From IMG/VR virus record IMGVR_UViG_2519899779_000002: a stretch of DNA of 48,133 nucleotides. One strand, 5' to 3'. The position numbers are program-made. This DNA is from a virus. Taxonomy: Duplodnaviria; Heunggongvirae; Uroviricota; Caudoviricetes. This document shows, piece after piece, positions 21,001 through 24,000 of the stretch (within the stretch, counting starts at the first letter, position 1; each line of letters opens with the position of its first letter).

Positions 21001-24000
21001 AAAAATGCAACGTATGGCGTTGAGATAGAAAGTCTGGTGCTGGAGATAAATGCACCGGCATCATCATAAAAAGTGAGCCAGTCAAATGGAAGGTATCGTT
21101 AAACTCACCGGTAGTGTCAGTGGGTCGTCTGAGATGCCTGCATGAGTTATCAGAGCCATCAGTACTTAACTGGTGGCTTTTTTTATTGTTGTCAGCTTCC
21201 GGATAACGGGAGACGGGGTATGTACCAGATGGAAAAAATCACAACAGGTGTGTCATACACCACGTCAGCGGTGGGAACGGGCTACTGGTTCCTGCAGTTG
21301 CTGGACAGGGTTTCCCCGTCTCAGTGGGCGGCAATAGGCGTGCTGGGGAGTCTGCTGTTTGGGCTGCTGACATATCTGACTAACCTGTATTTCAAAATCA
21401 GAGAGGACCGTCGTAAGGCGGCGCGGGGGGAGTAAAGCGATGAAGAAAAAATACGAACTGGGTGTTAAAGGGATAAATAATTATCCGGATAAGATTACTG
21501 TTACTGTGGCACTGGAAATTGGTGGGTATCCGTCACTGTTGTTGCCAGATGTGGCGATTAGTCTTGACCGTACTGAAGGTGCCACGCTGGAGTTTTACGA
21601 AGCTGAGGCGAAAAAGCAGGCGAAGCAGTTTTTCATGGATGTTGCTGCCGGGTTATGTGAAGGGAACGAACCGTTGCCGGAAAAGCGCCCCATAATTTTA
21701 GAGGCGCAGGATGTGTTGATAACCTACAAAGGAAAGCTACCGGGAAGAATTACTGGTTCTCTGAAGATGCCGCCGTCAACACTGCGGTCAGAAAAAGAGG
21801 CGTCTTGTCTGCAGTCTGAGTACTCCATTACGGTTAAAAGTGCCGGAGAGGAAGGAAATAAACGTTATTTTATTGCGTCTGCACCTGATAAAGATCAGGA
21901 ATGGGAGTGTAACCGGCCATCCTTTGTTGTATACGGAGATGGCGGGAAAATAACCATCTCAGAAAATGGGAAATTAACACCGCCATCGCACCAGCATAGT
22001 GAGGCGCTCATTGAATTTGCCATTGATTACCTGAAGAACAATAAAAAGCAGGGGCTGATGAAGCGCATTGGTCGTTGCATGGGATATCTGCAGGTAGCAG
22101 CTGAGATTGAAATGATGGCCAGTGGTGCTGACAATGATGCAGTTGTGCTGGAGGCTCTTCTGCGTGATTTTGATAATACGCCCTTTAAGAAAGCACCTGT
22201 TGACTGGATGCAGCCGGGGATGACTTATCTGAAAGGGCGTATATAAGGTGGCTCGTTATCTGTTGCTGGATAATCGACTGAAGATGCGTTCTTTTTGTGT
22301 TTTTGCGTAATGATTGTCCCACTCACAATCAAGGTAGCTTAATTCTTCATTCAACCAGTTATTTATATTGGTCTTAATACGCATAAGCATGGGCTGTGTT
22401 AATGCTCTGGCGATAATGCCGAGAGTCACAGGTGTGAGATGTCCATACGGCTCAGCCTGAATGGATTTTACTGCATCGTGTTCTTGTGGGAGGAGTAAGA
22501 GGCACTCTGATTTTACCCGCTCATTTATGGCTTGCAGGCATAAATCATAATTATGTTGATCGTTATGCATGGTTAATCCTCTACTGAAATTGTCAGATAT
22601 ATTTCAGCCATCAGGAAAAACGCCAGTGTCCTACCGCTGGCGGGCTGAAGATTTAACATATCCAGGGATTCGGAACCGATAAATCCTGATAAATATCCAT
22701 GAACACCAAAATCAAATATGGCCTGTCGGCTGCCGTTCTGGCGTTGATTGCCATCGGTGCGCCTGCGCCTGATATTCTCGACCAGTTTCTGGATGAAAAA
22801 GAAGGTAACCACACAACGGCATACCGTGATGGTGCGGGTATCTGGACCATCTGCCGCGGTGCCACAATGGTGGATGGTAAACCTGTTATTCCGGGCATGA
22901 AACTGTCGAAGGAAAAATGCGACCAGGTTAATGCCATTGAACGGGATAAGGCGCTGGCATGGGTGGAGCGCAATATTAAAGTTCCACTGACCGAACCACA
23001 GAAAGCGGGTATAGCGTCATTCTGTCCCTATAACATTGGCCCCGGTAAGTGTTTCCCGTCGACGTTTTATAAGCGGCTGAATGCTGGTGACCGCAGGGGA
23101 GCGTGTGAGGCGATTCGCTGGTGGATTAAGGACGGTGGCAGAGACTGCCGTATCCGCTCAAATAACTGTTATGGTCAGGTATCCCGTCGTGACCAGGAGA
23201 GCGCGCTGGCGTGCTGGGGAATCGACAGATAAGCAGAATATTTTGCTGAAAAATAAGGTATGGCCACGCGGGCGGATAACACGAAATCCTGCGAACTGGC
23301 GAAACGTAAGTGAATAAAAGTAAAAACCCCGTTTGTTGGCACCAAGCGGGGTTTTGTGTTTCTGACCTTGAGTAAGGCAAGGGAGAACATGGCGAAGTAT
23401 AAACGAATTCTGTTGAGGTTGACTATGAAAAATGGCCTTGAACTGAAAGCGCCTGTAACTGATGACATCAGCAGAGCACTGGCTTTTGCCATTAAGTGGG
23501 TGGCGGTCGGTGTTGCTGTGTTCCCGATGCTGTATGGGCTGGCAAAACTGGTCATTGCGTTGAAATCGTGAAGGGAGGATTAAGCATGTCAGACAAACTC
23601 ATAACGCTGGCGAAGATCCTCTGTGTAATTGTCGGCATTTCATTTTCACTAATGCTGGTTGCTCTTTTTCTTTCCATGGCCTGGATGATGTTGTCTTCGT
23701 CGGGGTTGCTGGGGTGAACATAAACCGAATGCTTTCCGCGTTTATCGTTATTCTGCTGGTGGCCTGTGGTGCGCTGTGGATGGCAACAGACCATTACCGT
23801 GATAACGCGATTACCTACAAAGCGCAGCGCGATAACAAAGCCAGTGAACTGAAGCTGGCGAACGCAACCATTACTGATATGCAGGTGCGCCAGCGCGATG
23901 TTGCTGCGCTCGATGCAAAATACTCGAGGGAATTATCCGATGCGAGAGCTGAAAATGAAACTCTGCGCGCTGATGTTGCCGCTGGTCGTAAGCGCCTGCG

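Follow-up and report, generated by a model that had tools for sequence, protein, structure and literature searches.

The IMG/VR record IMGVR_UViG_2519899779_000002, a stretch of 48,133 nucleotides from a virus of the Caudoviricetes (the whole of which is hereafter called the window), carries a lysis region in which two genes lie between the holin and the endolysin. The first of these, a long form of ydfR (21440-22246, + strand), is a late-operon gene encoding a protein of 268 amino acids (aa) that matches phrog_1085 over its whole length (E 9e-160). The second (22256-22570, - strand), hereafter the partner, is convergent to it and encodes a soluble five-helix protein of 104 aa belonging to phrog_1853; the stop codons of the two genes are 9 nt apart. 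They are preceded by an S21-type pinholin gene, S (21220-21435, + strand; 71 aa), which matches Pfam Phage_holin_2_1 (PF04971, E 9e-33) as well as phrog_9876 and phrog_20, both of them holin families, has the dual start Met1/Met4 and carries a run of six G residues (21425-21430) at its 3' end. They are followed by the signal-arrest-release (SAR) endolysin gene R (22699-23232, + strand; Phage_lysozyme PF00959, E 2.8e-25), which still belongs to the late operon. Long YdfR, its helical partner and a hairpin in the leader of the partner constitute a dispensable yet conserved two-gene accessory module of lambdoid late regions. A first-pass annotation, made from the sequence alone, had placed both open reading frames (ORFs) between the holin and the endolysin with coordinates that proved to be exact. 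Both are real genes, as indicated by many conserved homologues, by purifying selection and by a confident AlphaFold model of the 104-aa protein.

The 268-aa protein had been described as lacking any recognisable motif; however, its residues 1-100 match the Pfam family PF07041 (DUF1327, YdfR family) with 148.3 bits against a gathering cut-off of 25, and the protein is 98% identical to a sequence named 'YdfR family protein' at NCBI. Its proposed status as a late gene directly behind the holin was borne out, the ATG lying 4 nt past the holin stop codon and being preceded by GGGGGGAG. Three parts can be distinguished along the protein. The N-terminal DUF1327 domain (aa 1-75; 21440-21664, + strand) is predicted to adopt a beta-beta-beta-alpha arrangement of three strands and a long helix, with a predicted local distance difference test score (pLDDT) of 64-84. 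It is followed by a disordered linker or variable middle (aa 76-152; 21665-21895, + strand; AlphaFold pLDDT 21-34), where coiled-coil and other modules have been exchanged or inserted among relatives (alignment A1). The remainder is a conserved C-terminal domain (CTD) of about 115 aa (aa 153-268; 21896-22243, + strand), modelled by AlphaFold with three short strands and four helices (pLDDT 62-84 over residues 160-243). An alignment of the CTD that takes in homologues down to 27-33% identity (alignment A3) has H186, G211, R212, L217, Q218, A220, A221, P248, K250, W256, P259, G260, Y263 and L264 as invariant residues, and the dN/dS ratios of the domain (0.13-0.63) denote purifying selection.

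Only 71 relatives were recovered when 1.84 billion representatives were searched exhaustively with HMMER. In the distant relatives (27-33% identity) a DUF1327-like N-terminus, a variable middle and the CTD follow one another in the same order, and the long architecture is therefore old. A scan of GTDB genomes with the CTD profile, for which the back-translated pattern was narrow, returned three Escherichia/Shigella loci only. The short ydfR genes of the K-12 Qin prophage and of most Shiga toxin (Stx) phages look like deletion remnants that would have kept the N-terminal domain only. In the short form of phage BP-4795 the sequence jumps from about codon 110 to just upstream of R, at short repeats, and short direct repeats are found at the edges of both the partner-less and the CTD-less forms.

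A YdfR-family gene is a familiar occupant of this position. The gene order in the K-12 Qin prophage is essQ-ydfR-rrrQ-rzpQ, and a 114-aa ydfR sits between S and R in BP-4795 and in most Stx1, Stx2a and Stx2c phages. DNA matching the 5' part of the window ydfR was found at 6630 places in 3104 of the 5426 complete E. coli genomes examined (57%), and DNA matching the holin at 8936 places in 2449 E. coli genomes. K-12 YdfR and the window protein share a homologous N-terminal domain (45% identity over residues 1-77) and the same slot, directly after an S21-type holin and before a SAR-type lysozyme; they differ in that K-12 YdfR has 103 aa and is devoid of the linker, the CTD and the convergent partner, all three of which accompany the 268-aa form. 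A gene between holin and endolysin is thus the rule for this phage group. Compact cassettes, in which the two are adjacent as the first-pass annotation had stated, do occur elsewhere: the phage 21 cassette consists of four genes, S R Rz Rz1 (strain table, PMC12642591), and S21-family holin genes overlap or abut the lysozyme gene in loci L014, L015 and L024.

The comparison with other lambdoid cassettes therefore upholds the presence of extra material inside the cassette of the window, but not the idea that the 268-aa gene is unusual in its group. Since a YdfR-family gene is the common occupant of the slot, the gene is not foreign cargo. The cargo insertion that had been proposed for both genes survives in part for the 104-aa gene, which lies on a segment, AT-richer than its flanks, that is present or absent among relatives as an indel of about 400 bp. 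The contrary case named at the time, namely that these are conserved lysis-region genes of the group with a known function, applies to the ydfR-type gene as far as conservation goes, but not as regards a known function.

The segment in question (22274-22675) holds the partner and its leader, is bounded by imperfect direct repeats, GATAATC and GATAAATC, and is absent from those long-ydfR loci that lack the partner. It is missing from most relatives; in loci L005, L007 and L008, which have a long ydfR and no partner, a clean block of about 400 bp is missing while the last codons of the partner are retained. Its G+C content is 0.41-0.43 as against 0.47-0.53 in the flanks. The partner itself is under purifying selection (pairwise dN/dS 0.14-0.49), and its AlphaFold model, built from 12 sequences, is a five-helix bundle with a pLDDT of 88.7 and a predicted template modelling score of 0.82. 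It is rare, being present in 94 of the 5426 E. coli genomes, the same number as contain a match to a query spanning both genes; a set of 50,697 phage records has it in two distinct phages. Homologues that are 41-47% identical came from Salmonella enterica and from metagenomes in a profile search. The only family to which it belongs, phrog_1853, is a PHROG of unknown function. Apparent N-terminal extensions of the partner (positions 1-56 of the phrog_1853 profile; P0127 and P0204) were rejected as read-through of the leader in mis-called ORFs, and two minus-strand ORFs of 79 and 106 aa overlapping the start of R were dropped as unsupported.

The locus has a close relative in the Stx2-converting phage 86 (NC_008464), whose stretch from S to R is 97.5% identical to that of the window. 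Its gp05 is a long ydfR and its gp06 the partner, and the CTD and the partner proteins are 100% identical to those of the window; phage 86 carries stx2, whereas the window prophage is non-Stx. The two genes are annotated there as 'YdfR family protein' and 'hypothetical protein' only, and a paper on lysogen expression in phi24B names other phage 86 proteins and neither gp05 nor gp06.

The linkage between the partner and the CTD extends well beyond these two phages. Every readable locus with the partner (the window, phage 86, L004/L009, L013, L015/L016, L017-L019, L020/L021, L023, L024/L025 and L026) has a CTD-bearing ydfR arranged tail to tail with it, the gene ends being -4 to +19 nt apart. 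The identities of the CTD and of the partner to their window copies are correlated (r = 0.96 over 8 loci). The dependency is one-way, as the partner was never seen without the CTD gene, while the CTD gene, detected in 776 of the 5426 E. coli genomes, is often alone.

This linkage bears directly on the view that the 104-aa gene is an independent moron, that is, a piece of cargo expressed in the lysogen for lysogenic conversion or defence, which would stand beside the CTD by block inheritance only. Its orientation opposite to the late operon recalls bor, a small gene downstream of Rz that likewise lies beside the lysis genes, is present or absent and is AT-richer than its flanks; presence or absence among close relatives, the lower G+C content and the occurrence of other antisense ORFs in the same slot (phrog_2572, and a 233-aa ORF in locus L028) are also as expected of a moron. 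However, bor encodes a lipoprotein with a known role in the lysogen and has no obligate neighbour, whereas the partner is cytoplasmic, is strictly linked to the CTD gene and has no detected promoter. Moreover, lineages from E. coli, Salmonella and metagenomes, at about 40% protein identity, retain an adjacency of 0-19 nt, and they do so at two positions relative to the holin, in phages that are notoriously mosaic; the partner gene was seen nowhere else and has no PADLOC match. We consider separate cargo to be a rather unlikely explanation.

The two positions deserve description. In E. coli the pair separates S from R. Salmonella prophages have it just ahead of a compact holin-lysozyme-Rz cassette, where it follows Q and cargo genes, for example HicAB or a pertussis-S1-like toxin; in L014, too, the CTD gene is upstream of S and outside the S-R pair, in this case with no partner. 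The module therefore has no fixed place in the lysis cassette; its two genes travel together and are not confined to the S-R junction. One Salmonella enterica subsp. salamae locus (L024, 5453-6597, - strand) bears a gene for a 270-aa ADP-ribosyltransferase resembling pertussis toxin S1 and Scabin, together with a gene of 106 aa, both just upstream of the long ydfR-partner pair and the holin, which is the late-region position of stx in E. coli phages.

A direct regulator of lysis timing, with one or both proteins acting on the pinholin or on the SAR endolysin as an antiholin or a releasin does, would be suggested by the embedding of the E. coli module between S and R and by the translational closeness of ydfR to S; extra lysis regulators have been described in some phages with SAR endolysins, namely Mu (PMC9239132) and N4 (PMC12642591). 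The placement of the gene outside the S-R pair in Salmonella and in L014 is at odds with such a role. So too are the deletion of the module or of the CTD in most functional Stx phages and the ability of phage 21 to lyse with four genes. In addition, both proteins lack transmembrane and SAR segments: their Kyte-Doolittle means over 19 residues reach at most 1.18 in the 268-aa and 1.16 in the 104-aa protein. An action on the lysis proteins themselves is thus regarded as highly improbable.

The leader of the partner holds further conserved elements. All lineages have, some 50 nt ahead of the start codon of the partner, a hairpin of the form CGCCAGYG-N5-6-CACTGGCG with a T-run behind it (hairpin 1; 22616-22642, - strand). 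Its stem of 8 bp hardly varies, whereas the flanking proteins have only about 40-45% identity left. The hairpin with its T-run thus stands upstream of the partner gene and not downstream of it. A second hairpin, CTGAAAT...ATTTCAG (hairpin 2; 22584-22607, - strand), lies just upstream of the ribosome-binding site AGAGGA (22577-22582, - strand), of which the GAGG core is kept in six of eight aligned lineages. In Salmonella-type lineages the sequence of hairpin 2 is different and is also able to pair, with one covarying pair (UA to CG) that lends weak evidence for the structure. The folding z-score of the leader (-1.3) is not significant by itself. A search of 21000-23600 against Rfam gave no family, only a sub-threshold rimP match outside the feature. 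The sequence of hairpin 1 fits neither a sigma-54 promoter nor a nut/boxB site, both of which were considered.

Searches for function gave a domain for one protein only. The domain and structure searches that had been proposed for both proteins yielded DUF1327 in the 268-aa protein and no other Pfam, NCBIfam, PADLOC or fold match. PADLOC-DB 2.0 returned nothing at E <= 0.1 for the window proteins or for the Salmonella pair, and NCBIfam nothing for both window proteins or for that pair. Pfam searches with the 104-aa protein, with distant CTD homologues and with the neighbouring genes were uninformative, and the Pfam match of P0202 was discarded as a low-complexity false hit. A profile search against PDB sequences had a best E of 0.12, which is noise; a structure search gave no PDB fold match for either protein, and Foldseek against viral structures found nothing at E <= 0.001.

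These results also concern the notion of a type II toxin-antitoxin or abortive-infection pair, which would agree with a two-gene module of small soluble proteins and with the HicAB and RelB/ParE modules found nearby in Salmonella loci. The genes of the pair are convergent and do not form a co-directional operon, no toxin or antitoxin domain was found in Pfam or NCBIfam, the larger gene is commonly alone and the smaller never is, and the larger one is under late-promoter control. All of this runs contrary to a toxin-antitoxin arrangement, which seems hardly credible here.

Phage proteins that target RNase E are known, namely T7 gp0.7, T4 Srd and phiKZ Dip. YdfR is not known to have a sequence or fold relation to any of them; the likeness would possibly consist in the same kind of host target, if the window domain acts like K-12 YdfR. 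For the latter protein, binding of residues 1-72 to the N-terminal half of RNase E (residues 1-597) has been reported by bacterial two-hybrid analysis and co-purification, and RNA co-purifies with it (PMC13232886). The report of binding concerns K-12 YdfR only and not the window protein (PMC13232886). The gene ydfR is also a match in a screen for envelope defects, as cited in PMC13232886; in our reading, the phenotype may reflect polarity of the deletion cassette on the lysozyme gene that follows ydfR. In the literature searched, DUF1327 is mentioned nowhere and YdfR is studied in a single paper.

A terminator scan predicted no + strand terminator between ydfR and R, and late transcription must therefore cross the partner gene in antisense. 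The reading that we favour, to which a probability of roughly 0.45 is assigned with most of the doubt lying in its inferred steps, is that the late transcript silences the partner, that the partner modulates the CTD, and that YdfR acts via RNase E or RNA. The Q-antiterminated transcript would yield long YdfR late and alongside the lysis proteins, and the same transcript, reading antisense through the partner to reach the endolysin, would shut the partner off. Before late transcription, the partner would be made from its own strand and would bind or modulate its cognate CTD. The N-terminal domain of YdfR would engage RNase E or RNA in the way reported for the K-12 protein, so that the effect of YdfR in late infection would be on the fate of RNA and not a direct breach of the envelope.

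Several observations weigh against this picture of late silencing and RNA control. The overexpression of ydfR barely alters the transcriptome (PMC13232886), and the N-terminal domain of the window protein is only 45% identical to K-12 YdfR. The CTD occurs without the partner in about 682 genomes, and the partner must therefore be dispensable for whatever the CTD does; the binding of the one to the other is putative. Scans of the window, L013, L015 and L020 for a sigma-70 consensus promoter revealed none ahead of the partner, and expression in the lysogen is assumed. As the stem of hairpin 1 is invariant, it offers no covariation, and the element might just as well be an operator acting at the DNA level, a terminator or attenuator in the leader, or an RNA element or stabiliser. 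The direction of the indels, deletion or insertion, can be surmised from the junction sequences only.

The one-way dependency would also accord with superinfection exclusion coupled to self-immunity, in which a small protein made in the lysogen blocks a late step of superinfecting relatives and the CTD acts as its late antidote, by which the phage would evade its own inhibitor as well as those of related phages: an effector would never be found without its antidote, while the antidote could stand alone. The highly modular middle and C-terminal parts of YdfR would fit an arms race, as would the pairing of different C-termini with different antisense genes. A partner that is a mere regulator of the CTD predicts the same one-way dependency, however, and there is no similarity to known defence or anti-defence proteins, while expression in the lysogen is again assumed; exclusion of this kind is accordingly judged to be clearly unlikely.

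The alternative ends of YdfR are of interest in their own right. In L002 (3371-3631, - strand) and L027 (591-851, - strand), a convergent gene of 86 aa from another family (phrog_2572) overlaps the 3' end of a YdfR that terminates in ...KSLQ; this second case of a YdfR end with an antisense gene occupies the same slot and hints at a more general theme. In L028/L029 (3167-3868, - strand), an antisense ORF of 233 aa overlaps the 3' part of a common 305-aa YdfR variant (P0089, 275 contigs) and fills a seemingly 'empty' gap of 511 nt before the lysozyme gene. This ORF is uncalled as a gene and has no Pfam, PHROG or PADLOC match, and the odd C-terminus of the 305-aa variant may be read-through into the antisense insert. 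A bolder extension would treat YdfR as a polymorphic family with a constant RNase E-binding N-terminus and exchangeable C-termini, each having a convergent, lysogen-expressed partner (the CTD with phrog_1853, ...KSLQ with phrog_2572). Such a family would form a hitherto undescribed system of conflict between prophage and phage, the lysogen making an inhibitor of a late step and the late gene its neutraliser, with convergent transcription and the leader hairpin as the switch. We hold this extension to be quite doubtful, and decidedly improbable as a whole.

The sequences concerned are already in GenBank; the long form as the ancestral state, the strict pairing across genera and the conserved leader hairpin appear not to have been described in the literature searched. 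In K-12, ydfR is a 'y-gene'; most Stx and related lambdoid prophages have a member of its family in their lysis cassette. The K-12 protein is apparently what truncation has left of a larger YdfR with a conserved CTD and a dedicated partner on the opposite strand, and the natural object for genetics is the full-length pair, from phage 86 or the O104:H4 prophage described below, rather than the 103-aa remnant. The reported binding to RNase E gains a phage context, that of a late gene co-transcribed with the lysis genes. Should a role in phage-phage conflict or in late RNA control prove true, a new component would be added to one of the best-studied lysis cassettes; otherwise, the pair would be one more conserved accessory module of unknown role.

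The window prophage is a non-Stx lambdoid prophage and matches one of the same kind in E. coli O104:H4 FDAARGOS_349 at 99.98% identity over 12 kb; the gene order in the latter is tRNAs, nanS-p-like esterase, lysis genes and terminase. Over these 12 kb the two differ at two homopolymers only: at the 3' end of the holin gene (21425-21430), where the window has G6 and FDAARGOS_349 G5, and upstream of the holin (21172-21178), where they have T7 and T6, respectively. With G5, the holin comes to be in frame with the start of ydfR, and a holin-YdfR fusion is predicted; owing to this, PGAP calls both holin and ydfR pseudogenes in FDAARGOS_349. Either an error of sequencing or a genuine run prone to slippage could account for the difference in the G-run.

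Between the esterase and the lysis genes, about 30 nt before the holin start, stands a strong terminator-like hairpin with T7 (21152-21190, + strand); late transcription must read through it, presumably by Q antitermination. Downstream of the lysozyme gene lies Rz (23714-24187, + strand). Immediately before the lysis genes, as in Stx phages, the window encodes a NanS-p-type protein of 617 aa (19216-21069, + strand; DUF1737, SASA esterase and DUF6645), and no stx genes are present between the tRNAs and this esterase gene. The phage-borne tRNA genes, three in number (18474-18725), lie upstream of the esterase and comprise one with the anticodon CAT, Arg-TCG and Arg-TCT; the first of them is a tRNA-Met according to ARAGORN and a tRNA-Ile, presumably lysidine-modified, according to PGAP.

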